This document shows positions 18,523-35,126 of a stretch of DNA of 48,515 nucleotides, piece by piece. The translations under genes were made by a program, and so were the position numbers. Numbering within the stretch: position 1 is the first letter of the stretch; each line of letters begins with the position of its first letter. The stretch is from Pseudomonadota bacterium (GTDB lineage: Bacteria > Planctomycetota > UBA8108 > UBA1146): assembly GCA_017859655.1 (NCBI GenBank), contig JAFMMO010000002.1:1-48515 (forward strand), given 5' to 3'. Below the pieces are notes generated by a model. The model made no database searches and had not been told where the DNA came from. It saw nothing but the letters and a program-made list of their open reading frames with translations.

Positions 18523-21006
18523 TTGCTCGGCAGAACCCTCCCCCTCTCCCTCTCTCTCCTGCTCCTCATCGGCTGCGCGCTCCCTCCCGCGCCCGAAACC
18601 CCGGAGCCGAGCGATCCCCTGCGCGCCGCGGTGCAGAGCCTCGAGCGCTGCGAGGGGCTCCTCACCCTTCATGTCGACGCGGCGGAGAACACCGTCCTGC
18701 TGGAGCTCCCGGCCCCCACCGATGCGTCGGGGCGGTGCGCGGAGCTGCTCCTCGTCCACGGCCTGCGCCGCGGGCTCGGCTCCAATCCGGTCGGGCTCGA
18801 CCGCGGCCAGCTCTCCGGCGCCGAGCTCCTCGTCATCCGGCGGCGGGGCAGGCAGGTCCTGTTCGAGCGACCGAACCTCCGGTTCCGCGCGGGCCAGCCC
18901 GACCCGGCCGCGCGCCGAGCGGTGGAGGAATCCTTCGCGACCTCGGTCATCTGGGGAACCGAGGTCCGGGTGATCGCCCCCGACGGACGCTCCCTCGTCG
19001 ATCTCGGCCCCCTCCTCGTCAGTGATCGCCACGGGATCGCCGATCAGCTCTCCCGCAGCAGCGGCTCGACCTACCGCCTCGACCCGGCACGGAGCGCGGT
19101 GACCCTCGAGGCGCTCCGCGCCCTCCCCGCGAACATCGAGCTGGAGGCGAGCCTCACCTTCACCACGGAAGGCAGCCCCGGCCGGGAGATCTCGGGGACG
19201 GCGCCGGATGGGCGCGCGGTCACCCTCCTCCAGCACATCTCCCTCATCGAGCTGCCGCCGGCGGGCTACCGACCCCGACTCCACGACCCCCGCTCGGGCA
19301 CCTTCTCGACCGAGACGATCGACCCCACCGCACCCCTCACGGCGCCGACCCGGATCCGCTACGCCGAGCGGCATCGCCTCGCGCCGGGAGAGACCCTGAC
19401 CTACTACGTCGACCGCGGCGCGCCGGAGCCGGTCCGCAGCGCGCTGCTCACCGGCGCGGGGTGGTGGGCGGAGGCGTTCGAGGCCGCGGGGCTCCCCGGC
19501 GCGTTTCGCGTCGAGCTCCTCCCCGAGGATGTCGACCCCCTCGATGTCCGCTACTCCGTGATCCAGTGGGTGCACCGCGAGACCCGCGGCTGGTCCTACG
19601 GCACCAGCATCACCGACCCGCGAACGGGGGAGATCCTCAAGGGTCATGTGACCCTCGGCTCCCTCCGCGTGCGGCAGGACCGCCTCCTCTTCGAGGGTCT
19701 CCTGGGGGTGGAGAGCACGGGGACGGGAACCCCGGGCGATCCGATCGAGATCAGCCTCGCGCGGATTCGGCAGCTCGCCGCTCACGAGGTGGGGCACACC
19801 CTCGGCCTCGCCCACAATTTCGCGGGGAGCGCGCGCGAGCGGGCCTCGGTGATGGACTATCCCCCTCCTCGCGTCCGGGTCGCCGAGGATGGCTCCCTCG
19901 ACCTCTCCGACGCCTACGGCGTGGGAGTCGGCGAGTGGGATCGCCACGCGATCCGCTGGCTCTACGGCGCCCACGGCGTGGACGCGGCGGGGAGGATCGA
20001 CGAGGAGGAGGAGCGCCGCCAGCTCCGCGCCATCCTCGATGAGGGGATCGCGGGCGGCCTCCTCTACCTCTCCGATGCGGATGCCCGCTCGCCGGGGGCG
20101 AGCGATCCGCGCGCCAGCCTCTGGGACGATGGATCCGATGCGGTCGCGGGCCTCGAGGGCGCGCTGGCCGTCCGGCGGATCGCGCTCTCCCGGTTCGGCC
20201 CGGGGAACCTCCCGGAGGGCCGACCGCGGACCGAGCTCCAGGAGGTGTTCACCCCGGTCTACCTCCACCATCGATACGCCCTCGAGGCCGCGGTGAAGAC
20301 GATCGCCGGCGTGGAGTACGGGCACGGCGTCCGGGGGGATGCGATGCCACCCCCCCGAGTGATCCCCCGGGATCGTCAGGAGCGTGCGCTCTCCGCGGTC
20401 CTCCAGACCATGACTCCGGAGTTCCTCCGGGTTCCCCCGGGGCTCCTCCCCCTCCTCGTCCCCGCCACCCCCGGCTCTGCCCGCAGCGTCGAACGGCTCC
20501 CCGGCGCGACCGCACCGATGTTCGATCCTCTCGCCGCGGCGCGCGTCGCCGCCACCCTCTCCGTGGACCTCCTCCTCGACGAGGCCCGCCTCGCCCGACT
20601 GGTCAATCAGGGGCTCACGAGCCCCGGGCAGCTCACGATCGAGGATCTCCTCCGCCGGCTGACCGAGACCTTCCAGTCGAAGGAGGAGGAGCGGGAGGCC
20701 TGGATCGCGGGGATCGATGCGGCGGTGGAGCGGGTCATCCTCGATCGGCTGATGGCGCGAGCCGGCTCGGCGACGGTGACGGCGGAGGTGCGCACCGCGA
20801 TCGATGCCATCCTCGGCGAGCTGCTCGCCCGCCTCGGCCCACCCTACGAGGGGCGCCAGCTCCGCTACGACAACGGGCATCGCGCGCAGATCCTGCGCGA
20901 TCTGGAGCGACATCTCGCGCGCGCCCCCGTGGAGCGCAGCGGACTCAACCCTGCGCCGCCCCCGCCCCCCGGCAGCCCGATCGGCTGCGGGTGCGATCGA
21001 TACTGA
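18523..21006 (+). CDS. Zinc-dependent metalloprotease lipoprotein (DUF5117/DUF4953-type, HEXXH)
   Basis: An in-frame TTG at 18523 gives MLGRTLPLSLSLLLLIGC, which contains a lipobox. Catalytic motif AAHEVGHTLGLAHNF followed by SVMDYPPP. About 827 aa. Confidence 0.8.
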   Translation: MLGRTLPLSLSLLLLIGCALPPAPETPEPSDPLRAAVQSLERCEGLLTLHVDAAENTVLLELPAPTDASGRCAELLLVHGLRRGLGSNPVGLDRGQLSGAELLVIRRRGRQVLFERPNLRFRAGQPDPAARRAVEESFATSVIWGTEVRVIAPDGRSLVDLGPLLVSDRHGIADQLSRSSGSTYRLDPARSAVTLEALRALPANIELEASLTFTTEGSPGREISGTAPDGRAVTLLQHISLIELPPAGYRPRLHDPRSGTFSTETIDPTAPLTAPTRIRYAERHRLAPGETLTYYVDRGAPEPVRSALLTGAGWWAEAFEAAGLPGAFRVELLPEDVDPLDVRYSVIQWVHRETRGWSYGTSITDPRTGEILKGHVTLGSLRVRQDRLLFEGLLGVESTGTGTPGDPIEISLARIRQLAAHEVGHTLGLAHNFAGSARERASVMDYPPPRVRVAEDGSLDLSDAYGVGVGEWDRHAIRWLYGAHGVDAAGRIDEEEERRQLRAILDEGIAGGLLYLSDADARSPGASDPRASLWDDGSDAVAGLEGALAVRRIALSRFGPGNLPEGRPRTELQEVFTPVYLHHRYALEAAVKTIAGVEYGHGVRGDAMPPPRVIPRDRQERALSAVLQTMTPEFLRVPPGLLPLLVPATPGSARSVERLPGATAPMFDPLAAARVAATLSVDLLLDEARLARLVNQGLTSPGQLTIEDLLRRLTETFQSKEEEREAWIAGIDAAVERVILDRLMARAGSATVTAEVRTAIDAILGELLARLGPPYEGRQLRYDNGHRAQILRDLERHLARAPVERSGLNPAPPPPPGSPIGCGCDRY

Positions 21007-22563: not shown

Positions 22564-22974
22564 ATGGCCCAGCCTTCGGAGCGTCGTCTCTTCGTCGTCG
22601 GAGATCGCGTGCTCGTGACCCCCGAGAAGGGGGAAGAGCGGACGCGGGTCGGTCTCTATCTGCCCGCGACCGCCGTGGAGAGCGCCCCGGTCCAGGGGGG
22701 TCGCATCGTGGAGGTCGGACCCGGGACACCGGTGCCGAGCCCTTCGGATGTGCACGAGGAGCCCTGGAAGATCGGTGAGCCCCGAGCCCAGTATGTGCCG
22801 CTCGAGGCGAAGCCGGGCGACTTCGCGCTCTTCCTGCGCAAGGCCGCGATCGAGGTGCAGTTCGACGGGACCGACTACCTCATCGTCCCTCACGGGGCGA
22901 TTCTCCTTCTCGTGCGTGAACCCGCCATCGCCGAAGAGAGTCCCGAGTTCGATCCTGCTGACTTCGATCTCTGA
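22564..22974 (+). CDS. GroES (Cpn10)-like co-chaperonin family protein, orphan
   Basis: ATG 22564 follows GGAGGA. RLFVVGDRVLVTPEKGEERTRVGLYLPATAVESAPVQGGRIVEVGPG ... PLEAKPGDFALF....IEVQFDGTDYLIVPHGAILLLV parallels the GroES pattern (PLGDRVLV......T.GGI.LP......P..G.V.AVG.G....P..VK.GD.VLF......E....G.EYLI....DILA.I). It carries an insertion and an acidic C-terminal tail. No groEL is adjacent. Confidence 0.6.
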   Translation: MAQPSERRLFVVGDRVLVTPEKGEERTRVGLYLPATAVESAPVQGGRIVEVGPGTPVPSPSDVHEEPWKIGEPRAQYVPLEAKPGDFALFLRKAAIEVQFDGTDYLIVPHGAILLLVREPAIAEESPEFDPADFDL

Positions 22975-23286
22975 TCTGACTCAGATGACTCGCGTACATT
23001 CGAATCAGCACATGTGATCATTGATGCCTAGCCCAAGCCTGATGAATCAGTAAGGTTGGGATCAGCGGATCCGTCTTCGTGGGACTTAGGGCGCGACTAT
23101 TCATCGTGCCCGGGACGCTTCCGACCGTGAAACGATATGCATCACCTCAAGGAACCGCCGGCGAGCGGTTTCAGCGGTGATCCATCGGACCATGTGTGGA
23201 CCGTCCGATCGGTATTCGCTTCCGACTCAGCTGCAATTTGGTGCGAGTCCTCCGGAATCTATCTACCGGGGGAGAAGGAGTGAAGT

Positions 23287-26200
23287 ATGAGGACCCCTGT
23301 CGTATCGGGTCGCAAGACCCTCATCTGGATGCTGCTGACGCTTCTGCTCGGCGGAACCCTGCATGCCATCGATGTCCCCGTGTCGATCGACTTCGACCTG
23401 GAGAACCGCGAGGCGGGCTCCCTGATCGAGTCGGTCAACGGAACCAATGACGGAACCGCGCTCGTGGGTCCGATCGGTGTTCGAGGGACGCGCCCCGGCG
23501 ACGCCCGGAACGCCGCGGTCCTCCACCACTCGGCCCTCAGCTCCGGTCCGGCGAGCGATCTCGGCACCCCGAACCAGGCGTTCGGCGGGGTCGGAGTCGG
23601 AGTCGGCGGAACGCTGGGTGCCGCGTACGCGAACCAGAGCGACCTCGGGCGTATCCTCGTGATCGCCGACAACCTCGTCGATGCCAACGGCGATGGTCTG
23701 ATCGACCAGACGAACGACTCGAGCCTTCAGCAGCTCGAGTTCGAGTTCGACTTTCGGACGATCACCGCTCCCTTCGTTCCCCATGACATTCGCGTGCTCA
23801 GTCTCAAGGTGATCGACACGGAGGGTCCCAGCCCGGGATCGATCCAGATCTTCGATGCCCTCGGGAACCTGATCAGCGCGACCCCCATCGTGACCACCGG
23901 CAACAACGGGGTCGCCACCCAGTGGCTCGGAACCCCGGGTCTCGGGGTCGCGGGCGCAGCGACGATGAAGGTGATCCTGAACGGGTCGGCCGCGATCGAT
24001 GACATCGACTTCGAGATGTCGTCCGCGCCGCCCCCGTCCTGCGACATCTCCAGCCCCGGCGCCGATCATGTCGATGTCGAGGTCGGCGAGCTGCTGAGTT
24101 TCAACCTCTCCGCCATGAGCCACGAGGATGACCTCCTCGTCGAGGCCCTCCTGATGCCGACCGGCTCGTCCAGCACGCCCGGACTCCCCGCCGGAACGAC
24201 GGAGGAGGATCTGGAGCTCGAGTTCACGGTCAACTGGACCCCGACCGCGGACCAGATCGGCGACCACGAGTTCCTCTTCCAGAGCAGCGACTCCCTCGGC
24301 CAGTCCTCCACCTGCGGAGTGCTCGTCACCGTCTACTGCAATCTCTCGATCCCGCCGTTCGGGCAGCCGCTCTCGAAGACCATCTGCGAAGGCGAATCGG
24401 TCTACCTCTCCGCCTCCCCCCTCGTGACCCAGCCGGCCACCTACCAGTGGCAGAAGGACGGCGTCTCGATTCCCGGCGCGAACACCACCAACCTGACCCT
24501 GACCGCGCTCGGCACCGGCGACGCGGGTGACTACACCCTCGTCATCACCAACCCCTGCGGGACCCTCACGAGCCAGGCGGCCACGGTCACCGTCAAGTCG
24601 CCTCCTTCCATCGATCAGCACCCCTCGGACGTCACCACCTGCGAGGGCACGGATGCGACCTTCTCGGTCGTCGCCTCCGGGACGAGCTCCCTCTACTACC
24701 AGTGGAAGAAGGACGGCTCATCGATCTCCGGGGCGAACTCCTCGACGCTCACCCTCTACGCGGTCGACTCGAGCGACGCGGGCAGCTACTCGGTCACGGT
24801 CACGAACGACTGCGGCCACGCCACCTCCTATCCGGCGCAGCTGACGGTCCGCCACCCGCCCAGCATCTCCTCAAGCCCCGAGTCGCGGACGCACTGCGTG
24901 GGAGAGTCCACCACCTTCCATGTCTCCGCCTACGGGAGTGACCCGCTCTTCTATCAGTGGAAGAAGGACGGCAACTCGATCTCCGGCGCGAACTCCTCGA
25001 GCTACACGATCAGCTCGGTCTCGACCTCGGACGCCGGCAGCTACACCGTGACCGTCACGAACGACTGCGGGTCCGCGACCTCCTACGGCGCGGACCTCAC
25101 GGTGCGGACCCCCCCGTCGATCGACTCACACCCGAGCGATCAGACCCTCTGCGAGGGTCAGGCGATCCAGCTCACCGTCTCCGCGAGCGGCAGCTACTCC
25201 CTCCACTATCAGTGGAAGAAGGACGGGACGCCGATCTACGGAGCGACAAGCTCCACCCTGACGATCATCAACGCCACCGCGTCTGACTCCGGCCTCTACA
25301 CCGTCAAGGTCTCGAACGACTGCGGAAACGAGACCTCCTACGGCGCCACTGTCGAGGTGCGCGTCGCCCCCGAGATCACGACGCACCCGATGGACCAGAC
25401 CCTCTGCGAGGGTGAGACCCTGACCCTGACCGGTGCGGCGAGCGGCAGCCACCCGCTCCACTATCAGTGGAAGCGGAACGGGAGTCCGATCCCGGGAGCG
25501 AACAGCGCGACCTACACCGTCTCCTCCGCCCAGGCGAGCGACTCCGGCTACTACACCCTCCACGTCTCCAACGACTGCGGGGATGCCCAGAGCTACGCGG
25601 CCGATGTCGAGGTCCGCATCGCCCCGACCATCACGGATCATCCGTCGAGCAAGACCCTCTGCGAGGGACAGATGCTGACACTGACCGCCTCGGCCAGCGG
25701 CAGCGAGCCGCTCCACTACCAGTGGCGGAAGAACGGAGCCGATCTCCCCGGGGAGAACAGCCCGAACCTGATGATCATGGCCGTCGCGACCAGCGACGCC
25801 GGCTCCTACACGCTCCACGTCTCGAACGACTGCGGCACCGCCGAGTCGTCCGCGGCCGTCGTCGTCGTGCGCGTCGCTCCGACGATCACCTCGCAGCCGA
25901 CCGGCCAGACCCTCTGCGAGGGGGAGAGCCTCCTCCTCTCGATCTCGGCCACGGGCAGCGAGCCCCTGCACTACCAGTGGCACCTCGACGGAGCCCCGAT
26001 CCCGGGAGCGACGAGCTCGACCTACATGGTCTCCTCCGTGACCACGGCCGATGACGGCGTCTACACCGCCTCCGTCACCAACGACTGCGGCAGCGAGACC
26101 AGCGCTCCCGCCGATGTCGTGATCCGGGTCGCCCCGACGATCTCCCAGGACCCGGTCGGCGGCCTGCTCTGCGAGGGCGACACCCTCACCCTGAGCGTGA

Positions 26201-28497
26201 CCGCGGAGGGGAGCGCGCCCCTCACCTACCAGTGGGCCCGGGACGGATTGCCGCTCGACGCATCCGCGAACCCGAGCGCGGCGACCGCGCTCCTCATCAT
26301 CCCGAACACCCTCGCCTCCGACAGCGGGACCTACACCGTCACCGTGACGAACAACTGCGGCTCCGCCACCTCGGCGGGCGCCTCGGTCACGGTGCGCACC
26401 GCCCCCGAGATCACCACCCAGCCGATGGACCAGATCCTCTGCGAGGGTGAGACGATCAACCTGATGGTCGTCTCCTCCGGCACGGCGCCCCTCAGCTACC
26501 AGTGGTGGAAGGATGGGGCTCCGATCTCCGGCGCGACCTCGGCGATGCTCTCCATCCCGGGCGCCCTCGCCGCGGACTCCGGGAGCTACTTCGTGGTCGT
26601 CACGAACGTCTGCGGAACCGACACGAGCGCGGCGGCCGAGGTCACCGTCCGGGTCGCCCCGACGATCACCACCCAGCCTCTCGATCAGACCCTCTGCCTC
26701 GACGATGCCCTGGTGCTCACCGCCGCCGCCGCGGGGACCCTCCCGATCTCCTACCAGTGGGCGAAGGACGGCGCGGATCTCCCAGGCGAGACCGCCTCGA
26801 CCCTGACGATCACCTCGGTGACCGTCGCCGACGCGGGCGTCTACACGGTGACCGCCACGAACGCCTGTGGCTCGGCCACGAGCAACCCGGCGACCGTGGT
26901 CGTCCGGGAGCCGCCCACGATCACCTCCGACCCGACGAACCAGTCGATCTGCCTCGGCGAGACCGCGACCTTCTCCGTCACTGCGACCGGCACGCCGCCG
27001 CTCGAGTACCAGTGGCGGAAGAACAGCGTGGAGCTCCCCGGCGAGACCGCCTCGACCATCGTGATCACTTCGGTCGCGGTCTCGGATGGCGGCGTCTACG
27101 ACTGCGTCGTGACGAACATGTGCGGGACCGAGACGAGCCGGGGCGCGAGCCTCAACGTGCTCCTCCCGCCGACGATCACGGCCCAGCCTCAGGGCGCGGA
27201 TCTCTGCCTGGGTGACGACTACACCCTCGCCGTGACCGCGACCGGCACCGACCCGCTCTCCTACCAGTGGAGGAAGAACGGCGCGGACATCCCGGGGGCG
27301 ACCGGCTCCCAGCTCGTGCTCCTCGACGTCGACACGACCGACAGCGGCAGCTACACCGTCCTCGTCTCGAACCTCTGCGGGGATGCGGTGAGCATGGCCG
27401 CGATCCTGAATGTCCGCACCCCGCGGACGATCACCAGCCAGCCGGTCGGCGGCACGATCTGCCTCGGCGACTCGCTGAGCCTCTCCGTCGCGGTCGACGG
27501 CACCGGGCCGATCAGCTACCAGTGGGCCCTCGACGGAGTCCCGATCCCGGGCGCCACGAGCAGCACCTACTCGGTGGCGGCGGTCGACCTCGCCGATGCG
27601 GGCAACTACACCGTGATGGCGACCAACGTCTGCGGGACCGTGACGAGCATGCCGGCGACGGTGGTGGTCGCGGAGCCCCCGACGATCACCCTCGACTCCC
27701 CCACCGCGGTCACCCTCTGCACGGGCGAGTCGACGACCCTCTCCGCCACCGTCACGGGTTTCGATCCGATCAACCTGACCTGGACCCTCAACGGAGTGCC
27801 GATCCCCGGCGCCGGAGCGTCCAGCTTCACGATCACGAACGCGACCCCGGCCGACGCGGGCACCTACCAGCTCCTCGCCGACAACCTCTGCGGCACCGAT
27901 CAGAGCCCGCCGATCGAGATCACCGTGCGCGTGCCGCCGACGATCACCTCGCAGCCGACCGGTGACGACGAGACCTGCCCCGACGAGGGGATCGACTTCA
28001 CCTTCACCGTCGGCGCGACCGGCAGCGGCCCGCTCTCCTACCAGTGGTTCTTCAACGGCGCTCCGATCAGCGGCGCCAACTCGAGCAGCTACACGATCTT
28101 CAACGTGGTCGAGGATGACTACGGCGCCTACACCGTCGAGGTCTCGAACGACTGCGGCTCGGTGACCAGCCAGACCGCGCTCCTCGAGGACCCCGCCTTC
28201 GGCATCTGCGAGACCCCGTTCGAGCGGGGCGACTGCAACGCCGACGGCCACATGGACATGGCGGACGGGATCTACATCATGCGCTTCAGCTTCCAGGGCT
28301 TCGCGCCCCCGGGATGCCTCGACGCGTGCGATCACAACGACGACGGGCTCGTCGATGTGGCGGACTCGATCTGGGCGCTGACCTACATCTTCCTCGGCGG
28401 GAACGCGCCGCTCGCGCCCTTCGGAGCCTGTGGCTTCGACGAGACGCTCGACGAGGTCGACTGTGAGTTCTTCCCGCCGTGCGAGACCGCCCCCTGA
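23287..28497 (+). CDS. Giant secreted protein (1736 aa): N-terminal region of about 340 aa, 15 tandem Ig-like repeats, and a C-terminal dockerin-like calcium-loop module
   Basis: ATG follows GGAGAAGGAG. Signal peptide MRTPVVSGRKTLIWMLLTLLLGGTLHA. Repeat consensus: PP.I...P.D.TLCEG..L.L.V.A.GS.PL.YQW.K.G..I.GA.SS.Y.I.....SD.G.YTV.V.N.CG...S..A.V.VR. The C-terminus has two D-x-N-x-D-G loops (DCNADGHMD, DHNDDGLVD). Confidence 0.9.
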   Translation: MRTPVVSGRKTLIWMLLTLLLGGTLHAIDVPVSIDFDLENREAGSLIESVNGTNDGTALVGPIGVRGTRPGDARNAAVLHHSALSSGPASDLGTPNQAFGGVGVGVGGTLGAAYANQSDLGRILVIADNLVDANGDGLIDQTNDSSLQQLEFEFDFRTITAPFVPHDIRVLSLKVIDTEGPSPGSIQIFDALGNLISATPIVTTGNNGVATQWLGTPGLGVAGAATMKVILNGSAAIDDIDFEMSSAPPPSCDISSPGADHVDVEVGELLSFNLSAMSHEDDLLVEALLMPTGSSSTPGLPAGTTEEDLELEFTVNWTPTADQIGDHEFLFQSSDSLGQSSTCGVLVTVYCNLSIPPFGQPLSKTICEGESVYLSASPLVTQPATYQWQKDGVSIPGANTTNLTLTALGTGDAGDYTLVITNPCGTLTSQAATVTVKSPPSIDQHPSDVTTCEGTDATFSVVASGTSSLYYQWKKDGSSISGANSSTLTLYAVDSSDAGSYSVTVTNDCGHATSYPAQLTVRHPPSISSSPESRTHCVGESTTFHVSAYGSDPLFYQWKKDGNSISGANSSSYTISSVSTSDAGSYTVTVTNDCGSATSYGADLTVRTPPSIDSHPSDQTLCEGQAIQLTVSASGSYSLHYQWKKDGTPIYGATSSTLTIINATASDSGLYTVKVSNDCGNETSYGATVEVRVAPEITTHPMDQTLCEGETLTLTGAASGSHPLHYQWKRNGSPIPGANSATYTVSSAQASDSGYYTLHVSNDCGDAQSYAADVEVRIAPTITDHPSSKTLCEGQMLTLTASASGSEPLHYQWRKNGADLPGENSPNLMIMAVATSDAGSYTLHVSNDCGTAESSAAVVVVRVAPTITSQPTGQTLCEGESLLLSISATGSEPLHYQWHLDGAPIPGATSSTYMVSSVTTADDGVYTASVTNDCGSETSAPADVVIRVAPTISQDPVGGLLCEGDTLTLSVTAEGSAPLTYQWARDGLPLDASANPSAATALLIIPNTLASDSGTYTVTVTNNCGSATSAGASVTVRTAPEITTQPMDQILCEGETINLMVVSSGTAPLSYQWWKDGAPISGATSAMLSIPGALAADSGSYFVVVTNVCGTDTSAAAEVTVRVAPTITTQPLDQTLCLDDALVLTAAAAGTLPISYQWAKDGADLPGETASTLTITSVTVADAGVYTVTATNACGSATSNPATVVVREPPTITSDPTNQSICLGETATFSVTATGTPPLEYQWRKNSVELPGETASTIVITSVAVSDGGVYDCVVTNMCGTETSRGASLNVLLPPTITAQPQGADLCLGDDYTLAVTATGTDPLSYQWRKNGADIPGATGSQLVLLDVDTTDSGSYTVLVSNLCGDAVSMAAILNVRTPRTITSQPVGGTICLGDSLSLSVAVDGTGPISYQWALDGVPIPGATSSTYSVAAVDLADAGNYTVMATNVCGTVTSMPATVVVAEPPTITLDSPTAVTLCTGESTTLSATVTGFDPINLTWTLNGVPIPGAGASSFTITNATPADAGTYQLLADNLCGTDQSPPIEITVRVPPTITSQPTGDDETCPDEGIDFTFTVGATGSGPLSYQWFFNGAPISGANSSSYTIFNVVEDDYGAYTVEVSNDCGSVTSQTALLEDPAFGICETPFERGDCNADGHMDMADGIYIMRFSFQGFAPPGCLDACDHNDDGLVDVADSIWALTYIFLGGNAPLAPFGACGFDETLDEVDCEFFPPCETAP
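24340..28190 (+). repeat. 15 tandem coding repeats, period 255 nt (85 aa), encoding Ig-like domains
   Basis: The Y-Q-W codon triplet starts at 24442, 24697, 24952, 25207, 25462, 25717, 25972, 26227, 26497, 26752, 27007, 27262, 27517, (LTW) 27775 and 28039. Eleven of the fourteen intervals are exactly 255 nt; the other three are 270, 258 and 264. Array boundaries are approximate. Confidence 0.85.
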
Positions 28498-28522
28498 TCA
28501 ACTCTCGAGCATGGATGCGATA

Positions 28523-28564
28523 CGCCCCTCCCACCCTCACGGGCGGGGGGGGCGTTCTGCTTTT
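28523..28564 (+). terminator. Putative intrinsic terminator of the giant gene
   Basis: It lies 26 nt after the stop codon. CGCCCCTCCC (28523-28532) pairs with GGGGGGGGCG (28545-28554) with one G-U wobble. The 12-nt loop can form a further CCC/GGG stem. A T-rich tail TTCTGCTTTT follows at 28555-28564. Confidence 0.55.
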
Positions 28565-28588
28565 CCAGGGGAGAGCCCGGGGTTCCGG

Positions 28589-29473
28589 TCAGCTCTCGAG
28601 AGGGCGGATCCAGATGTTCCGGAAGCGGACCGGATTCCCGTGGTCCTGCAGGCGGATCGGGCCCTCGGTCGAGGGGGCCGCATAGCTCGGAAGGGCGCGA
28701 TGGCGGGTGTCTCCCTGGATCGGGACATCGTGATGGAGCAGGACCCCGTTGTGGAAGACGGTCACCCGCGCGGGCTCGGTCACCGCCCCCTTGTCATCGA
28801 GGCGAGGTGTGTGGAACACGATGTCGTAGGACTGCCACTCCCCGGGCGGACGGGACGCGTTCACCAGGGGGGGCTTCTGTCCGTAGATCGCCCCGCACTG
28901 CCCGTCGGGGTAGGTCGGGTTCTTCCAGGAGTCGAGCAGCTGGACCTCGTAGCGCCCCATGAAGAAGACGCCGCTGTTCCCTCGCCCCTGCGAGCTCCCC
29001 TTCACCTCCGGCGGCGTGCGGAACTCGAGGTGGAGCTGGACATCGCCGAAGGAGTCGCGGGTGGTGATGTCCCCTGTCCCGTTCACCTCCATCGCCCCCT
29101 CGACCAACCTCCACCCGGCCGCATCATCCCGTCCGGTCCACTGGGAGAGGTCGTTCCCATCGAATAGGATCCGCGCGTCGCTCGGAGCCGCCCCCGGGGA
29201 CGGAAGCTGAGGGTGGTCACCCACCAGCACCATCGTCGGCTGGGGGCGACGACCGTCGTGGACATGCCACTGCGTCCCCGGAAGGACGGGAGTGTCGGTG
29301 TAGCCGACCTCGGGGACGACGAGAGGGGCGGTGGTCTTCGCAATCGAGCCCTCGATGGCCGAAGCCTCGACCTGGCCGGCGACCTCGGGCGAAGGAGTCT
29401 CGGGGAGACCGCCGCAACCGACGAGCCCGAGAATCAGCAGACACGAGGCGGACCGGGTGAGGGTGATCGACAT
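28589..29473 (-). CDS. DUF1080 (3-keto-disaccharide hydrolase-like) lipoprotein
   Basis: ATG 29473 follows AAGGAG. Lipobox LILGLVGC. The core is ILFDGNDLSQWTG......W.LVEGAMEV......T...FGD.QLHLEFR....NSGVFFMGRYEVQLLD......IRLQDHGNPVRFRNIWIRPL. Confidence 0.85.
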   Translation of the reverse strand: MSITLTRSASCLLILGLVGCGGLPETPSPEVAGQVEASAIEGSIAKTTAPLVVPEVGYTDTPVLPGTQWHVHDGRRPQPTMVLVGDHPQLPSPGAAPSDARILFDGNDLSQWTGRDDAAGWRLVEGAMEVNGTGDITTRDSFGDVQLHLEFRTPPEVKGSSQGRGNSGVFFMGRYEVQLLDSWKNPTYPDGQCGAIYGQKPPLVNASRPPGEWQSYDIVFHTPRLDDKGAVTEPARVTVFHNGVLLHHDVPIQGDTRHRALPSYAAPSTEGPIRLQDHGNPVRFRNIWIRPLES

Positions 29474-29566
29474 GGGGGGCGCTCCTTTCGGGGGTCGTCG
29501 CATGGTCCCCCACCCTTGCGCCCACTTCAACGGTTCGCCTCCGAGGAGAGACGCAAGGAGCAGGAG

Positions 29567-30067
29567 ATGCCCGACCGGCCGTCACAAGGCAGGGAGCTGA
29601 TCGAGGCGCGGGGACTCATGGCTCACCCGGAGGGAGGCTACTATCGCGAGGTCCACCACAGCTCCCTGAGCGTGTCCCACCCCAGCCGGGAGGTGACCAC
29701 CCCCCGGCCCGCCTCCACGATGATCGAGTTCCTGCTCCTCGCGGGTGAGCCGAGCCGATGGCACCGGGTGAGAACCGAGGAGATCTGGATCCACCTCGCC
29801 GGTGCCCCGCTCACCCACGAGCGCGTGGATGAGGGGCTCCGGGAGCATCAAGGCACGACGTTGGGCCCCGTCCAGGGGGGCTCGCGATCCCATCTCCTGA
29901 TCCCGGGTGGATACTGGCAGGCGGCGCACACCTCAGGTGAGTTCACCCTCAGCGCCTGCATCGTCGCGCCCGGGTTCGAGTTCGAGGACTTCACCCTGTT
30001 GCGCGACGAGCCCGAGCTGGTGGTGAGATTCCGGGAGCGCTTCCCCGAGCGGTCGGAGCTCCTCTAG
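29567..30067 (+). CDS. Cupin-fold protein, DUF985 family
   Basis: ATG 29567 follows AAGGAGCAGGAG. LIEARGLMAHPEGGYYREVHHS...S.IEFLL..G..S.WHRV...EIW.H..G.PL...............L.IPGGYWQAA......TLSACIVAPGFEFEDFTL is the DUF985 pattern. Confidence 0.7.
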   Translation: MPDRPSQGRELIEARGLMAHPEGGYYREVHHSSLSVSHPSREVTTPRPASTMIEFLLLAGEPSRWHRVRTEEIWIHLAGAPLTHERVDEGLREHQGTTLGPVQGGSRSHLLIPGGYWQAAHTSGEFTLSACIVAPGFEFEDFTLLRDEPELVVRFRERFPERSELL

Positions 30068-30888
30068 TCGCGGCGCAGCCAGACCATCTGTCCGGTCCAC
30101 CGCTGCTTGAGCTCCTCCAGCGGCAGCAGACCCCGGCCGCTCGCCGGATCCGCGATGGAGACCTCCCGACCGTCGACGCCGAGGACCACGACCCAGTGAT
30201 CGAGACCGGGTCGCTGGCTCAGTGTGACCGCCACCGGGGCGCCCTGGGAGAGGAGCTGCGGCAGGGTCGCCCGGCTGACCACCGGGGTCCACCGATACCC
30301 GACGAGCCGCAGACGCAGACCACGGATGAGCCGAAGCTCGTCGGTGCCCCGCAGAGAGCTCGACCAGCAGAGCCGGGCCATCTCCTCCTCGGTGCTCGGG
30401 ACGCCGTGGTGATGAAGAAGGGTCACGGCGGCGGCCGGCCCACAGGAGTAATCACTGGTCTGCCGACAGACCCCATCCCGACCGACGACTCCCCCGAGCA
30501 GACCGTAGTCCTCGACCGCGGTGGCGAGGAGATGGTCCGCGCCGAATCCCCAGACCCAGAGGGACACCCCGATCAGGAGTCCGTGCGCGACCCGTGAGCG
30601 AACTCGCGGCGCCGCCATGGCGAAGAGCGCGATCGAGAACGGGGTCGCCCAGAAGGTCCTCAGGAGCGCGTAGCTCTCGGGGGAGAGCGCCCCGATGGCG
30701 ATCAGCCGATACTCGATCTGCGGAGCGAAGACGAGGAGCGCCCGCAGCAGGATGGGGATGAGGCAGAGACCGATGACGAGGAGGGTCACGCGGCGGCTCT
30801 CCGGTCGAACCCGCCAACCGACATAGAGGGCGAAGGTGAAGCAGAGCACTCCGAGAATGGAGAAGAGCCAGCGATCCGACAATTCCAT
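30064..30888 (-). CDS. Polytopic membrane protein with a C-terminal C39-type cysteine peptidase domain (no ABC transporter module)
   Basis: ATG 30888 follows GGAGAGGAG. About 5 N-terminal TM helices. Then CRQTSDYSCGPAAAVTLLHHHGV (oxyanion Gln plus catalytic Cys motif Q-x5-C-G) and LDHWVVVLGVDGREVSIADPASG (the catalytic His and the Asp of the DP motif). Confidence 0.7.
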   Translation of the reverse strand: MELSDRWLFSILGVLCFTFALYVGWRVRPESRRVTLLVIGLCLIPILLRALLVFAPQIEYRLIAIGALSPESYALLRTFWATPFSIALFAMAAPRVRSRVAHGLLIGVSLWVWGFGADHLLATAVEDYGLLGGVVGRDGVCRQTSDYSCGPAAAVTLLHHHGVPSTEEEMARLCWSSSLRGTDELRLIRGLRLRLVGYRWTPVVSRATLPQLLSQGAPVAVTLSQRPGLDHWVVVLGVDGREVSIADPASGRGLLPLEELKQRWTGQMVWLRRD

Positions 30889-31207
30889 CCTGCGTGCTCC
30901 TCTCCGCCCGGCCCGGAGCGGATTGACCGACCTCGCCCGCTCCGAAGACCCCCTCTCATCCAGTCTACGATGGAGATCCCCGAGAGAGCGTCGGCGCCGA
31001 GCTCCCCTCACGCCAGAAGTCCTGCCTCACCTGCAGGTTCTCCCTTTCATCCGGTCTTTCCTGACACTCATGGAGAGGGTGCGCGGCGCGATTGTCGAGA
31101 CGGTACTCTCGGACGAGAGAGGGTCGACAAGCGTCTGCGGCAGGGGAACACCTTTCATCTGTGCGTGAGCCCTCCACCCGTATCCGAGCTCATACCGAAG
31201 GACCAAG

Positions 31208-32500
31208 TTGGCAACCCAGCGTGCCTTTACGATCATCCTGTTCCTTCTCGTCACGACATCGGCGCTGCCCGGTCAGGTGGGCCATGCGCTCCGCGTGATC
31301 GGGGCCAGCGGTCCTTCCGGCGCCACCTGCGAGGGATCGGTGACCATCGATACGCAGACCGAGCTGGTCGGCTGGAACTTCAGTCTCTGCACCACACCGG
31401 GGGAGCTCCGGATCCTGAGCACGATGGATGGAAGCGCTCTCTCCATGACTCTCAACGGCTCGGCTCCCTTCTTCGTCAACAGTGACATTGACGAGGCCGG
31501 AGCGGGGCTGACCTATGGCCTGATTCTCGACGGACTCGGGACCCTGGCCCCCCTCTCTCCCGGGAGTGATCTGGAGATCCTCCGCCTTCTCGTACGCCTC
31601 GATGGACCCCCGGGCTCCACCGCCCCGATGGCGATCTGCGACCTCGGGAACCCTCCGAACCCACCCCTTTTCGTCCCGCCGGGCGGGAGTCAGGAGTTCA
31701 CGCCGGTGACGCAGGACGGCACCTTCACGATCTCCGCTGCAGCCTCCGCGACCCTCCGCGGGGGAGAGACCACGGCGAGCGGTCTCCAGGCCCTCCTCCC
31801 GATCCTGCTCACCCTTGAGGGGAGCGACGGCGTCAAGGGGCTCAGCTTCGGACTCGCACTGGATCCGACGAAACTCATGGCCCAGAGCCTCGAGGTCGGA
31901 GCCGCGCTGCAGGCGATCTCCGGAGGCACCGGGCCCCAGTTCTTCCTGCCCAACCTCGAGCCGATCGGCGGCGGGGGAGTCACGCTGGCCGTCATCATGG
32001 GAACGAACCCGACGCCCGCCCTCCTCTCTCCCGGCGTCGACCTCGAGATCGCTCAGCTCGCGGTGAACATCGCCCTGGGAGCCGTCGGCGAGGCGGTGCC
32101 CGTGAGCTTCTCGAGTCTGCTCGGCGATCCCCCTGTCGCGACGGAGATCGAGGTGAGCGGTCCCCAGGGTGACCTTCTCCTCGAGCCGCAGGTCGCCCCC
32201 GGCCTGATCCATGTGCCCCCTCCACGCTTCAGAAGGGGCGATGCCAACGGAGATGGTCTCTTCAATCTCATGGATGCGATCGACCTCCTCGAGTCGATCT
32301 TCCTGAGCCCGACACCGCCGAGCTGCGGGGATCGACTCGATGTCAATGACGACGGAGCCCTCGGCATCCTGGACGCGGTCGCGCTCCTCACCTGGCTCTA
32401 CCTGAACGGACCCCCGCCGGGGAGCCCCCACCTCGACTGCGGGGAGGATCCCACGCCGGACATCCTCGGCTGCAATCCCGCGGGCAGCTCCTGCCCCTGA
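31208..32500 (+). CDS. Secreted protein with two cohesin-like domains and a C-terminal dockerin-like module
   Basis: TTG start follows GAAGGA. Signal peptide (M)ATQRAFTIILFLLVTTSALPGQ. Two beta-sandwich-like regions carry cohesin-type landmarks (LVGWNFSLC....L.ILS...; VKGLSFGLALDPTKLMAQSLEVGAAL....GVTLAVIMG.....L.PGVDLEIAQLAVNI....GEAVPVSFSS......V..GLIHV). The C-terminal 90 aa is homologous to the tail of the giant protein (RRGDANGDG...DVNDDG...). Confidence 0.6.
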   Translation: MATQRAFTIILFLLVTTSALPGQVGHALRVIGASGPSGATCEGSVTIDTQTELVGWNFSLCTTPGELRILSTMDGSALSMTLNGSAPFFVNSDIDEAGAGLTYGLILDGLGTLAPLSPGSDLEILRLLVRLDGPPGSTAPMAICDLGNPPNPPLFVPPGGSQEFTPVTQDGTFTISAAASATLRGGETTASGLQALLPILLTLEGSDGVKGLSFGLALDPTKLMAQSLEVGAALQAISGGTGPQFFLPNLEPIGGGGVTLAVIMGTNPTPALLSPGVDLEIAQLAVNIALGAVGEAVPVSFSSLLGDPPVATEIEVSGPQGDLLLEPQVAPGLIHVPPPRFRRGDANGDGLFNLMDAIDLLESIFLSPTPPSCGDRLDVNDDGALGILDAVALLTWLYLNGPPPGSPHLDCGEDPTPDILGCNPAGSSCP

Positions 32501-32519
32501 GAAGACGACGCAATGCCGA

Positions 32520-33023
32520 TCACTGCCTGAGCGGGCGCCGGAGAATCGCGGTGCGCTCGACGAGCCCCTCTCCTCCCCCCGCCCGGTAGGGGACCCCGAA
32601 CGTGACCGTGAGGGTGAGAACCTCCGCCCCCCGCTCCACCGAGAAGTCGGTGATCCCGACTCCCAGCGTCTCGCCATTGTGGAGGAGTCGATCCCCAGCG
32701 CGGGTGATCGACCGCTCGCTCCCGAGCACCGCGGCTCCCGACTCCCACCCGGTCACGACCCGATAGCGGAGCCCCTCCCCGGCGCTCGCCTCGATCGAGT
32801 CCGGGTCCGCGAACTCGAGCTCCTGATGGAGTCGGTCCACGGTGCGCAGCACTCGCGCGTCCGCCTCGGCGCCGGCGGTCATCTCCGCCATCACCACCTC
32901 GGAGGAGGTGAAGATCTGGAGGAGGACGAATCCGATCGTCGACATGACGGCGACCACGACCATGACCTCGACGAGGGTGAAGCCTCGCTCGTCTGAAACT
33001 CCCGGTCTGGTTCTGATGACCAT
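32520..33023 (-). CDS. Prepilin-type (type IV pilin / T2SS pseudopilin-like) protein
   Basis: ATG 33023 follows GGAAGGAG. Classical class III signal: 14-aa basic leader MVIRTRPGVSDERG, then FTLVEVMVVVAVMSTIGFVLL (G-F-T-L-x-E motif). Confidence 0.75.
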   Translation of the reverse strand: MVIRTRPGVSDERGFTLVEVMVVVAVMSTIGFVLLQIFTSSEVVMAEMTAGAEADARVLRTVDRLHQELEFADPDSIEASAGEGLRYRVVTGWESGAAVLGSERSITRAGDRLLHNGETLGVGITDFSVERGAEVLTLTVTFGVPYRAGGGEGLVERTAILRRPLRQ

Positions 33024-33127
33024 TGAACGCTCCTTCCCGGCCCCCCCCCGGAGACCCTCATGTGATCCGGACTCGACGCCGCGCGAAGTCCTCGTGGCTC
33101 GACTCCCCCCTGCACCACGGCGAGGAC

Positions 33128-34504
33128 TCAGGGCCCGGCCTGCGTCCGGGCCCGATGCTCGCGCCAGCGGGCGGCGACTTCGTAGTCGCCGGTCGTCCCC
33201 ATCTCCCGACCGTCGATGCTCTCGTCGATGAGGAACTTGGGCTCGCTCCCGAGGAGCGCGGCGCTCCGCACGACGGCGGAGCCGTACCACTCGCTCGACC
33301 CACCCACGAGGAGCGGTCGGCGTGGCGCCGCGAGGCGGGCGAACACCGACGAGCCTCCCTGCGACGCGATCGCGCCGCTCTCCCCCACGCCGAGGATGCG
33401 CGAGTAGCCCGAGGCCCACGGATCGCTCAGCTCCCGCCCGAAGGAGGAGGCTCCCTGGACGACGAGCCCGCTCCCCGCGCCAAGCACCGTCATCACCCCG
33501 TGCTCCGTGCCTCCCGCATCGATCCGGACCGTCGAGCCGGAGTCGACGCTCAGGCCCGTCGCACCGCTCACGACGAGAGTGATCGGACCAGTGGATGTGT
33601 CGAGGGTCAGCACGGCCCCCGAGGTGACGGAGACATCGCGAAGATGGTAGACACCGGCGCCGAGCCGATGGGTCCCACCGGAGAGCAGCAGGTCACCGTG
33701 GTTCATCGGGCCGGGCACCGGGCTCCAGTCGGACCCGAAGGCATCTTCGAGCAGGGCGTTGTCGTTGTTCGCGATCGCCTCCGCTATGAACGCCGGCGCC
33801 AGCTCCTCAAAGGGGTCGACCTCCGTCTCCTCGCCTTCCTCCTCGATCGAACCCGTCACATTCGAGGGACCGAAGGTGGAGACCCATCCGGAGGCGTTCA
33901 CATCCCCCTGCACGAGCGCGGTCCCGGTGAGCTCGACGCTCCCGTTCGCCCAGACCGATCCGCTGTCTCCCGGAGAGGCGATGCCGACCGCGGGGTCGTA
34001 GCTCCCGAAGACGCTGGCTCCGTTCATCACGAGGAGGTCCTCCGCCGGGTCCCCGATCCCGGTGAGGACCAGGCCGTGGGGGAGCCGGAAGATCACCGGC
34101 TGGAGGACCGCACCAAGCGCGAAGGACACACCATCGGCTTCCGCGCGGATCCCGACCCGCCACGCCTCGGTCTCCTCCACCCGCGTCGCGGAGAGAAGCT
34201 CCACCGTCTCCCCCCCCATCGCACACGGAGCGTGAGGCGCGGGTCGAAGGACGAAGTGGTCGGGATCCGTCTCGAGCCGGAGCTGCTGGAGCCCGAGGGC
34301 GGAGTTCGCGGCGAGAGCCGCCCGATGGAAGCGATGGGAGTTCACCGCGGAGCGATGCATCGCCAGATGGGTCATCTGGATGACCATGCACATCGAGCCG
34401 ATCGCCACGATCAGCACGAGCGTCGGAAGGAGAACCGAGCCCCGACGGAGATCGGTGCGGTCGAAGCGATCACGGGACGCGGAGAACACGGGGGACACGA
34501 ACAT
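33128..34504 (-). CDS. Large minor-pilin/PilX-like protein (hydrophobic PilX-type N-terminal helix, Gly/Ser/Val-rich beta-rich C-terminal region)
   Basis: ATG 34504 follows GAGGAGG. The N-terminus RRGSVLLPTLVLIVAIGSMCMVI resembles the PilX_N helix. The rest is G/S/V/T-rich (NGSVELTGTALVQGDVNASGWV, SGAVLTLDTSTGPITLVVSGATGLSVDSGSTVRIDAGG). It sits between two prepilin genes. Confidence 0.45.
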   Translation of the reverse strand: MFVSPVFSASRDRFDRTDLRRGSVLLPTLVLIVAIGSMCMVIQMTHLAMHRSAVNSHRFHRAALAANSALGLQQLRLETDPDHFVLRPAPHAPCAMGGETVELLSATRVEETEAWRVGIRAEADGVSFALGAVLQPVIFRLPHGLVLTGIGDPAEDLLVMNGASVFGSYDPAVGIASPGDSGSVWANGSVELTGTALVQGDVNASGWVSTFGPSNVTGSIEEEGEETEVDPFEELAPAFIAEAIANNDNALLEDAFGSDWSPVPGPMNHGDLLLSGGTHRLGAGVYHLRDVSVTSGAVLTLDTSTGPITLVVSGATGLSVDSGSTVRIDAGGTEHGVMTVLGAGSGLVVQGASSFGRELSDPWASGYSRILGVGESGAIASQGGSSVFARLAAPRRPLLVGGSSEWYGSAVVRSAALLGSEPKFLIDESIDGREMGTTGDYEVAARWREHRARTQAGP

Positions 34505-34562
34505 GCAGCCTCCTCGAGCGATGGGGATGGAGAACCGGGTGAGAGCGGTCGAGGCGAACCGA

Positions 34563-35126
34563 TCAGGGACGCAGGAGGCAGTTCACGATCGCGTCGGAGA
34601 CCCCCGGCTCCCGGGGATGGCGGATGGTGATCCGGACCGGCAGCACCCGCGGGGCATCGCACTCCCCCTCCTCGATCGCGCCACTCCCATCGAGGTCGAG
34701 GCCGATGGCGCCGGTGCCGAAGTCGGCGGGCACCTCGCTCTCCACCGTCCACACCTCGATCGTCCCGCTCGCCACGGCCTGAGCGGAGACCCCCGTGTGC
34801 ACCGAGCCGGCGGAGTCGAACCAGAGGCTCTCCCCCTCCCCACCCGGACCATGGAGCGTGAGGAGCTCGGCGAGCTCGAGGGTCTGGAGATGCGTGATCA
34901 CGCTCTGGGCGTGCACCGACTTCCGGATCTCGCTGAGGCGCTGATCGCCGAGGCGGATGGTCGAGCTGAGGGTTCCCCCCAGCGCGACGAGGCCGACCGA
35001 GATCAGGGAGATGGCGATCATCACCTCGATCAGCGTGAAGCCGGCGCGGGGGTCGGAGTGAGGCGCGTGGAGACGGGACGGGAGGCGGGTCCCCCCCACG
35101 GGGGGATGGGCAGAGGTTCCGAGCAA
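34563..35126 (-). CDS. Prepilin-type (pseudopilin-like) protein
   Basis: Contains ...DPRAG-FTLIEVMIAISLISVGLVALGG, the prepilin cleavage/methylation motif. The start is uncertain. TTG 35126 is preceded by AGGAAGGA and gives a 29-aa leader. GTG 35099 gives a 20-aa leader. The ORF is open back to 35315. Confidence 0.7.
   Translation of the reverse strand: MLGTSAHPPVGGTRLPSRLHAPHSDPRAGFTLIEVMIAISLISVGLVALGGTLSSTIRLGDQRLSEIRKSVHAQSVITHLQTLELAELLTLHGPGGEGESLWFDSAGSVHTGVSAQAVASGTIEVWTVESEVPADFGTGAIGLDLDGSGAIEEGECDAPRVLPVRITIRHPREPGVSDAIVNCLLRP

Follow-up and report, generated by a model that had tools for sequence, protein, structure and literature searches.

The PCAT and AMS bacteriocin exporters carry a C39 peptidase domain N-terminal to an ABC transporter (TMD and NBD) and have a GG-leader substrate, and the C39-like domain of HlyB binds its substrate without cleaving it. 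The signals of the tag-directed sorting systems are either a strictly C-terminal motif with a TM helix and basic residues, or the T9SS CTD beta-sandwich. To our knowledge, no substrate has been assigned to the C39 peptidases that are membrane-anchored and lack an ABC transporter, a large family. FapD, the periplasmic C39 protease of the Pseudomonas Fap amyloid system, is soluble and Sec-exported, is encoded in the fapA-F operon, is needed for the secretion of FapC and would act on a substrate that lacks a canonical GG leader (PMC5557850). A hypothetical cohesin/dockerin 'planctosome' has been proposed for freshwater Planctomycetes (PMC6461901), and non-cellulosomal cohesin and dockerin modules were surveyed by Peer et al. 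2009, as cited in that paper. None of the papers retrieved in a literature search links a cohesin-dockerin scaffoldin to a membrane C39 peptidase.

Gene layout

The window analysed here is a stretch of 48,515 nucleotides. All five genes of the candidate locus were confirmed at the coordinates first given in an earlier note on this DNA. The features are as follows:

23287..28497, + strand: giant Ig-repeat protein, 1736 aa (Pfam and tail homology)
about 24340-28200, + strand: 15 Ig-like repeats of the giant protein (Pfam)
28216-28494, + strand: predicted C-terminal dockerin and Cys-rich extension of the giant protein
28589..29530, - strand: DUF1080/3-keto-disaccharide-hydrolase lipoprotein (PF06439, E 8.5e-47)
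29567..30067, + strand: Cupin_5 (DUF985) protein, 166 aa (PF06172, E 2.8e-37)
30064..30888, - strand: membrane-anchored C39 cysteine peptidase, 274 aa (PF03412)
about 30514-30888, - strand: four predicted TM helices of the peptidase (residues 5-26, 32-54, 81-95 and 99-122)
about 30067-30501, - strand: C39 domain (residues 130-274)
30889..31207: shared divergent intergenic region, 319 bp
31208..32500, + strand: predicted cohesin-cohesin-dockerin (Coh-Coh-Doc) mini-scaffoldin, 430 aa
31208-31276 (approximate), + strand: Sec signal of the mini-scaffoldin
31283-31735 (approximate), + strand: predicted cohesin 1
31745-32212 (approximate), + strand: predicted cohesin 2
32228-32407 (approximate), + strand: predicted dockerin of the mini-scaffoldin
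32408-32497 (approximate), + strand: Cys-rich extension of the mini-scaffoldin

The DUF1080 protein carries a lipobox (LVGC), the likely start of the cupin gene is at 29567, and, for the peptidase, database proteins begin at MELSDR. The two long spacers described in the earlier note were confirmed to be low in GC (about 0.56 at 22850-23300 and 0.60-0.63 at 30800-31250, vs 0.69 for the whole window). An Rfam search of 22800-32600 returned nothing at E <= 1. The DUF1080 lipoprotein and the cupin are missing from the other loci; they are bystanders and are not kept with the peptidase and scaffoldin genes.

Cohesins, dockerins and the giant protein

By its predicted fold, the 430-aa protein is a cohesin-cohesin-dockerin mini-scaffoldin. 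The AF2 model (pLDDT 84.5) has as its best Foldseek matches the ScaA cohesin dyad (3l8q) and CipA Coh-XDoc (4fl4/3kcp), and each predicted cohesin matches known cohesins with a TM-score of about 0.8 (target-length normalised) and an rmsd of 2.7-3.2 A, as expected of the nine-stranded jelly-roll. Dockerin helices are modelled at residues 354-365 and 387-398. In the profile searches suggested by the earlier note, C39 scored above its cut-off and the Ig models had matches; in the 430-aa protein of the window, Dockerin_1 (PF00404) scored 16.3, below its cut-off of 22.9, and Cohesin (PF00963) had no match. Across the scaffoldin family, Dockerin_1 matches 9/12 members (best E 7.4e-8) and Cohesin 4/12 (best E 1.1e-11), and a cohesin sequence profile gave a weak match in the PDB (4uyp_A, E 0.004). 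The assignment of cohesins and dockerin was thus made from family members, the predicted fold and the tail profile against the PDB.

The N-terminus of the scaffoldin is an ordinary-looking Sec signal ending in [G/A]-Q, and the protein showed neither a double-glycine leader nor a conserved GG cleavage site. A conserved GGGG in cohesin 2 was considered as a cleavage site and rejected; it looks structural, since cohesin 1 has glycines at the equivalent position as well, and relatives outside the pair retain the GGGG. The protein has no obvious membrane anchor of its own.

The 1736-aa protein has an N-terminal signal-like segment, and the Pfam models Ig_3, I-set and Ig_2 each match 15 stretches of it. 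As the earlier note had described, it ends in a module of about 90 aa homologous to the one that closes the 430-aa protein (39% identity over 83 aa, E 3e-19). These are the only two such tails in the window. Each comprises two calcium-binding loop and helix segments (DxNxDG...D, twice), and neither has a hydrophobic or TM helix or a basic anchor. Dockerin_1 has no match in the giant protein; the tail profile matches cellulosomal dockerins in the PDB (e.g. 2y3n_B at 1.1e-8). Judged by these sequence matches, the tail appears to be a true dockerin, with two calcium-loop/helix repeats, followed by a Cys-rich extension of about 30 aa.

The giant protein is probably a cohesin cargo. It was missing from every other orthologous locus examined and does not belong to the conserved peptidase/scaffoldin pair. 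A comparable arrangement is found in locus L094, where five Coh(n)-Doc genes are followed by a 1680-aa giant bearing the same tail, and in locus L093 a dockerin-bearing lipoprotein shares an operon with a Coh-Coh-Doc gene.

The window resembles the planctosome proposal in that exported proteins of a Planctomycetota genome that is non-cellulolytic carry cohesins and/or dockerins, that an adaptor-type protein joins cohesins to a dockerin, and that the cargo is adhesin- or peptidase-like rather than cellulolytic. It differs in the conserved Cys-rich C-terminal extension of the dockerin, in the compact Coh-Coh-Doc form of the scaffoldin (about 430 aa), and in the strict pairing of one scaffoldin subfamily with a membrane C39 peptidase.

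The peptidase and its divergent partner

Peptidase_C39 (PF03412) scored 46.3 bits on the 274-aa protein (cut-off 22, E 4.7e-12). The AF2 model (pLDDT 79) has the papain-like C39 fold, with Foldseek matches to the peptidase domains of PCAT1, ComA and LahT150 (rmsd 1.7-2.1 A, probability 1.0). Residues Q143, C149, H231 and D247 align with the catalytic Gln, Cys, His and Asp of PCAT1 and are invariant in seven family members. The earlier note had judged the domain apparently intact, and the strict conservation of these residues argues for an active enzyme; the C39 domain is of the double-glycine type. The membrane domain is also well conserved, with W7, C42, R49, P56, W80, P83 and F84 invariant. 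Topology was derived from the positive-inside rule and from an AF2 model whose alignment had 7 sequences. In the resulting four-TM model, lysine and arginine are concentrated in loops 1 and 3; the C39 domain would thus probably face the periplasm, where the exported proteins are, which agrees with the topology that the earlier note had required of a peptidase acting on them.

The fold and catalytic residues are those of the PCAT1, ComA and LahT domains. Unlike the PCAT and AMS enzymes, the window protein has no ABC transporter or NBD, its TM helices come before the peptidase domain and not after it, the domain is predicted to be periplasmic where theirs is cytoplasmic, and no gene for a GG-leader substrate was found. 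The NCBIfam PCAT models scored far below their cut-offs, as did those for FilB, FapD, PA2778 and NHLM. Like FapD, the window peptidase is predicted to act outside the cytoplasm, lacks a fused ABC transporter, lies beside genes for exported proteins of surface assembly and has a candidate substrate without a canonical GG leader. Unlike FapD, it has a membrane anchor of four predicted TM helices at its N-terminus and a cohesin-dockerin protein as its partner, and it is not a FapD orthologue (C39_FapD, NF058616, 22 bits vs a cut-off of 330); no fap genes were found in the window.

A genome scan with the C39 protein as single query had no matches, and the relatives were obtained by an alignment-based scan. 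Neighbouring genes were identified by targeted HMMs together with a gene caller based on GC3, which misses the cupin and a pseudopilin; this replaced an all-vs-all clustering that was swamped by high-GC shadow ORFs. The new finding is a divergent pair of adjacent TM-C39 and Coh-Coh-Doc genes with differing flanks and a conserved spacer motif, present in five independent Planctomycetota lineages (the window and loci L002, L005, L009 and L011/L091). Across the pair loci, identity is 46-64% for the peptidase and 37-64% for the partner, locus GC ranges from 57 to 69%, and the flanks are reshuffled and not common to the five lineages. A reciprocal search from the partner (P0041) reaches the gene adjoining the C39 gene. 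The co-occurrence of gene types predicted in the earlier note therefore holds for the peptidase and the cohesin/dockerin gene, and fails for the giant Ig protein.

All five lineages share a conserved 12-nt motif, (C/A)AGTCTACGATG, in this spacer. The window has a single copy, which lies at 30962-30972 and thus about 74 nt upstream of the start of the C39 gene; on the scaffoldin side, a CGTATCC block precedes the scaffoldin gene. Among 173 loci (about 1.9 Mb), AAGTYTACGATG had 12 matches, 11 of them inside this spacer. Two interpretations of the spacer were discarded. Small ORFs running from the conserved ATG of the motif, as a GG-leader peptide would, are not conserved as peptides, and a regex for a sigma-54 promoter (TGG-N9-TGC) had no match in any of six spacers. 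A sigma-54 activator lies near the C39 gene in L001, L005 and L009 only, and an M28 peptidase in L001, L011 and L091 only; these, and the VWA and ECF neighbours of other lineages, are absent from the window.

Role of the pair

The earlier note had proposed that the tail is a sorting tag, and that the membrane peptidase recognises, cleaves and sorts tagged proteins or attaches them to the surface, as a new system akin to sortase, exosortase or PorU with the cohesin-like protein as partner. The likeness to sortase/LPXTG, exosortase/PEP-CTERM, rhombosortase/GlyGly-CTERM and PorU/T9SS CTD is real in that a membrane cysteine peptidase adjoins exported proteins with a common, mostly C-terminal module: both exported window proteins carry the tail, the C39 domain is probably periplasm-facing, 109/138 tails lie at the extreme C-terminus, and further tail-bearing genes occur no more than 10 kb from the pair in L001, L005, L011 and L091. 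However, the module looks like a folded, calcium-binding dockerin with none of the anchoring features of those signals, and 29/138 tails are N-terminal or internal (e.g. in the L001 257-aa protein and in P0017/P0018). No C39 gene was found in 77 tail-centred metagenome loci (partner orthologues excluded; about 520 kb, 131 tail ORFs), of which 19 span at least 9 kb; linkage is read here at the level of the locus. C39 is likewise absent from clusters L093 and L094 and from the vicinity of P0045 and P0046, distant Coh-Coh-Doc relatives, and in about 20 TM-C39 loci of more distant homologues the neighbouring genes are unrelated. Because the tail is not strictly C-terminal, because tail genes and Coh-Doc clusters occur without C39, because the giant is not a conserved neighbour and because distant TM-C39 genes have other company, this is not a tag-plus-sortase system. 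At locus level the tails behave as generic dockerins, neither strictly C-terminal nor linked to C39 genes, an outcome that the earlier note had itself named as refuting, and the proposal is largely refuted; we consider it highly improbable. A shared C-terminal dockerin should not be taken for a sorting signal.

The simpler alternative given in the same note, a non-cellulosomal cohesin-dockerin scaffold beside an unrelated peptidase, survives in its first half, for the two secreted proteins. Its second half would have the pair persist as inherited synteny while the peptidase processes a GG-leader peptide or another envelope protein. The four-TM C39 family is indeed large (at least 143 clusters at 50% identity, E <= 1e-30), the genes beside its other members vary (a kinase-STAND protein, VIT-VWA, RNase R, an ABC permease), the scaffoldin yielded no cleavage motif, and the M28 peptidase and sigma-54 activator also recur beside C39 in some lineages. 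We nevertheless think it unlikely: the peptidase is not a random neighbour, since the pair persists in five lineages at the identities given with both flanks reshuffled, always divergent and with a motif specific to its spacer, and no conserved small GG-leader ORF, in the spacer or among the neighbours, and no ABC exporter was found near the C39 gene. Less probable still is a role as membrane receptor, in which the scaffoldin dockerin or a cohesin would bind the periplasmic C39 domain as HlyB binds its substrate, proteolysis being secondary or absent. Such a role would suit a scaffoldin with no obvious anchor, some C39-like domains are known to be non-catalytic (3zua, for instance, came up in the Foldseek fold matches), and the conserved membrane domain suggests more than a passive anchor. 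The invariant catalytic residues argue against it, the binding is itself a proposal, and an inner-membrane anchor would hold the scaffold in the periplasm, a poor fit with a 1736-aa adhesin-like cargo.

We favour, with about as much doubt as conviction, a non-cellulosomal cohesin-dockerin surface scaffold in which one scaffoldin subfamily is coupled to a FapD-like periplasmic C39 protease of its own. The 430-aa protein would be an exported mini-scaffoldin whose cohesins bind calcium-dependent dockerins on other exported proteins, the neighbouring Ig-repeat protein being the likely cargo, and whose own dockerin may plug into another cohesin, for self-assembly or anchoring. The peptidase, held by its four-TM anchor with the catalytic domain on the periplasmic face and perhaps co-regulated with the scaffoldin from the shared spacer, would serve as a maturation or release protease for this subfamily or its assembly, much as FapD does for the Fap fibre, with the scaffoldin or its complex as putative substrate. 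Counting against this reading are the scaffoldin sequence, in which no GG leader or cleavage motif was found, the distant Coh-Coh-Doc relatives P0045 and P0046 with no C39 close by, and the distant TM-C39 loci with other neighbours. A stronger version is possible, although we hold it only tentatively: the four-TM C39 might be the obligate processing enzyme of one Coh-Coh-Doc family, and might clip or transpeptidate the scaffoldin near the membrane, licensing export, polymerisation or surface attachment. If this is true, a pathway of cohesin-dockerin assembly would be gated by a protease, and a class of substrates would for the first time be assigned to the large uncharacterised membrane-anchored C39 family, for which the conserved pair, with its small and tractable Coh-Coh-Doc protein, offers a concrete candidate substrate or partner. 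The pair would also bring control by proteolysis into the planctomycete cohesin-dockerin assemblies, which are themselves still hypothetical.

The dockerin variant with a disulfide-rich extension, as defined here from the tails, is abundant in metagenomes. A scan with the narrower alignment A7 (A6 being too divergent), and hence biased to query-like tails, recovered 133 tail ORFs in 79 loci, clustered at up to 7 per 20 kb and co-occurring with cohesin-like genes.

Gene content of the locus

The five open reading frames that the earlier note had placed in this locus, from a giant Ig-repeat protein to a 430-aa scaffoldin, were all confirmed in position. The two intergenic spacers that it had singled out for their low GC were also lower in GC (about 0.56 and 0.60-0.63; window GC, 68.6%).

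Features of the locus and its flanks in the window
14823-16931, minus strand: FG-GAP/ASPIC protein
17791-21006, plus strand: DUF5117/DUF4953 Met-zincin (1071-aa ORF)
22975-23286: spacer upstream of the giant Ig gene, 312 bp, ~56% GC
23287-28497, plus strand: giant protein, 1736 aa; Pfam Ig_3, I-set and Ig_2, 15 stretches matched by each
28589-29530, minus strand: DUF1080 protein (PF06439), lipobox LVGC
likeliest start 29567: Cupin_5 protein (Pfam)
30064-30888, minus strand: TM-C39, membrane cysteine peptidase, 274 aa; Peptidase_C39, 46.3 bits against a cut-off of 22
30962-30972: conserved motif in the spacer between TM-C39 and scaffoldin
31208-32500, plus strand: scaffoldin, 430 aa, N-terminus signal-like
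32520-33419 and 34563-35315, minus strand: two prepilin-type N-methylation-motif proteins
33128-34504, minus strand: DUF7305 protein
35387-37069, minus strand: TolC-like OEP protein

No Rfam match at E <= 1 was found in the spacer 22975-23286. The giant gene is overlapped by very long ORFs in antisense or in other frames, among them one of 1069 aa (25126-28335, minus strand). They are no genes but shadow ORFs of high-GC repeat DNA; shadow ORFs also confounded the first clustering of the neighbour ORFs. The Met-zincin and the FG-GAP/ASPIC protein upstream are of exported types that in other organisms often bear the Cys-extended dockerin described below; here, both are without it. Immediately 3' of the scaffoldin gene and on the other strand lies what looks like a pseudopilin/secretion-like cluster (32520-37069), which could be the export route. 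It is not kept beside the TM-C39/scaffoldin pair in other loci.

The scaffoldin and its dockerin tail

The AlphaFold2 model of the 430-aa protein (pLDDT 84.5) consists of two beta-sandwich domains, the cohesins at residues 26-176 and 180-335, and a helical tail. Its top Foldseek matches were the ScaA type II cohesin dyad (3l8q) and the CipA cohesin-X-dockerin structures (4fl4, 3kcp), and single cohesins aligned with a TM-score of about 0.8 and an rmsd of 2.7-3.2 A. Pfam was weak on the window protein, with Dockerin_1 at 16.3 against a cut-off of 22.9 and no match to Cohesin. Across 12 family members, Dockerin_1 was matched in nine (best E 7.4e-8) and Cohesin in four (best E 1.1e-11). By predicted fold, the protein is a Coh-Coh-Doc mini-scaffoldin, and we hold its cohesin-dockerin identity, taken alone, with high confidence.

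The giant and the scaffoldin have homologous last ~90 residues, as the earlier note had observed (over 83 aa, 39% are identical; E 3e-19), and these are the only two copies of the tail in the 48.5-kb window. A profile built from 11 tails matched cellulosomal type I dockerins in the PDB over profile positions 5-60 (2y3n_B, E 1.1e-8, and many others besides). Since these are genuine cellulosomal dockerins, the tail is assigned as a dockerin. It has two DxNxDG calcium-binding loops with a helix after each, followed by a family-specific extension of ~30 residues. The module as a whole has four conserved cysteines, which in the scaffoldin are C373, C411, C422 and C429.

The N-terminus of the scaffoldin is a normal Sec signal ending in [G/A]-Q in all relatives, whether partnered with a C39 peptidase or not. 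Nearly all signal peptides of the aligned Coh-Doc family end in this way, and the Gln is invariant in a six-sequence alignment (A2; window 31208-31280 and orthologues), which suggests that the mature Coh-Doc proteins may start with pyroglutamate.

A conserved pair of TM-C39 and scaffoldin genes

Full-length relatives of TM-C39 were few in the indexed database (P0001-P0007). A scaffoldin orthologue divergently adjoins the C39 gene in every case for which upstream DNA was at hand: L002, L003, L004 and L012 (P0004), L005 and L006 (P0002), L009 (P0006) and L011. The reciprocal search, started from the cohesin dyad, led to P0041, whose divergent neighbour is a 275-aa C39 protein (L091). The pair occurs in five independent lineages, with the close relatives L011 and L091 counted as one. 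Identity across the paired loci is 46-64% for the C39 protein and 37-64% for its partner, at a locus GC of 57-69%.

A 12-nt motif, AAGTYTACGATG, is conserved in the shared spacer of all lineages, including L002, L005, L009, L011 and L091, where it precedes the C39 start by about 50-170 nt; variants begin CAGTC (window) and AAGCC (L009). Eleven of its 12 exact occurrences among 173 loci fall within the spacer of the pair. On the C39 strand, the motif includes a -10-like TARACT. The other lineages share a second conserved block, CTGACTCT ... TTCTCA-N16-TATCCT, upstream of the scaffoldin gene; in the window this block is rearranged.

The flanking genes are not shared. Other lineages have an ECF sigma factor and a VWA/YfbK protein beyond the scaffoldin gene, and on the C39 side of the pair a sigma-54 activator or an M28 peptidase; no homologues of these four were found in the window. 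The giant Ig protein, the DUF1080 protein and the cupin are in turn absent from the other paired loci. As the flanks are unshared and the spacer motif is common to all lineages, the conserved unit is the TM-C39/scaffoldin pair alone. The linkage of the peptidase proposed in the earlier note holds for the scaffoldin and not for the giant. The M28 peptidase gene lies 3' of the C39 gene in three loci, with a 4-bp overlap in L091, and the sigma-54 activator is convergent to the C39 gene in three lineages (accessory regions: L091 6761-9366; L011 9986-12612; L001 1781-6141; L005 4717-6264; L009 about 1865-3400).

In the AF2 model of TM-C39 (pLDDT 79), the C39 domain (residues 130-274) is predicted well and comes straight after four TM helices (5-26, 32-54, 81-95 and 99-122). 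Its Foldseek matches, at about 2 A, were the PCAT1, ComA and LahT double-glycine peptidase domains. Gln143, Cys149, His231 and Asp247 do not vary within the family and align with the catalytic residues of PCAT1. Lys and Arg are concentrated in the short TM1-TM2 and TM3-TM4 loops, and by the positive-inside rule these loops would be cytoplasmic and the C39 domain periplasmic. The cytoplasmic placement that the earlier note had counted against its own proposal is therefore not the predicted one. The membrane domain has invariant residues of its own (W7, C42, R49, P56, W80, P83 and F84), which suggests that it may be more than an anchor.

The ~270-aa architecture of four TM helices and a C39 domain is that of a large uncharacterised family (P0069-P0217; 143 clusters at 50% identity with E <= 1e-30, and 1280 at E <= 1e-10). 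The more distant members (30-37% identity) have heterogeneous gene contexts, and no cohesin or dockerin neighbours were found in about 15 loci.

Distribution of the tail and the proposed role of the peptidase

The earlier note had proposed that the shared tail is a sorting tag served by TM-C39. The tail is very common in metagenomes (at least 597 pattern matches, at least 494 confirmed), and of the 138 copies in a metagenome sample centred on the tail, 29 lie more than 15 residues before the stop codon. In a 257-aa protein of L001 and in P0017 and P0018, the module directly follows the signal peptide. It is not obligately C-terminal. Linkage to C39 was judged in the best 79 tail loci (528 kb), which hold 133 clearly clustered tail ORFs, up to seven per 20 kb, and cohesin-like domains in nine loci. 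A C39 domain was present in one, L096, where the tail gene is the partner's own orthologue in the P0004 species. Another, L095, is the partner gene of the window species itself, on a contig of 1.9 kb that does not extend as far as the C39 gene. The other 77, 19 of them at least 9 kb long, had no C39. Two Coh-Doc clusters without C39 (L093 and L094, below) and the distant C39 relatives without cohesin or dockerin neighbours also speak against a tag served by the peptidase. The interpretation in the earlier note is partly supported: the sorting-tag system is not borne out, but the linkage of the scaffoldin to the peptidase is real.

That both secreted proteins are parts of a non-cellulosomal cohesin-dockerin network is well supported by homology and fold. 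In the predicted binding, the Coh-Coh-Doc protein would take up two dockerin-bearing proteins, and its own dockerin would fit a further cohesin. Plausible cargoes or adhesins are the Ig-repeat protein and, in L094, an analogous giant. The simplest reading of TM-C39 is that of a dedicated periplasmic protease which is co-regulated with this subfamily of scaffoldins and acts on the scaffoldin or its assembly. FapD offers an analogy: this periplasmic C39 peptidase needs its active-site cysteine to support the secretion of Fap fibres, and the FapD substrate, too, has no canonical GG leader (PMC5557850). Two observations speak against simple leader cleavage of the scaffoldin: its ordinary Sec signal is the same in C39-less relatives, and a search for a conserved GG site peculiar to the paired subfamily found none. 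The scaffoldin or its assembly is therefore a putative substrate of TM-C39. The statement as a whole, network and dedicated protease together, we consider about evenly balanced.

Cohesin and dockerin modules have been reported in Planctomycetes, and a "planctosome" has been proposed (PMC6461901). Literature linking C39 and dockerin was found only in giant-gene surveys, with both domains within very large proteins, and the database names, from Planctomycetota MAGs, are "hypothetical protein" and "cysteine peptidase family C39 domain-containing protein". Neither the conserved pair of TM-C39 and Coh-Coh-Doc genes nor the dockerin variant with its Cys-rich extension therefore appears to have been described before, and neither makes a new category of sorting machinery.

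Two further tail loci carry related arrangements. L093 (7570-9788) has an operon of two genes, the first for a 304-aa lipoprotein that carries a dockerin at its C-terminus and the second, overlapped at its start by 4 bp, for a Coh-Coh-Doc protein (P0045); the operon directly follows a MotA/ExbB-ExbD-TonB cluster and has no C39 gene nearby. In L094 (1-13929), within a 15-kb contig without C39, five tandem Coh(2-3)-Doc genes precede the gene for a giant of 1680 aa (Big_5/FG-GAP/TIG) that bears the same dockerin tail. The window has a smaller version of this arrangement in its giant and scaffoldin.
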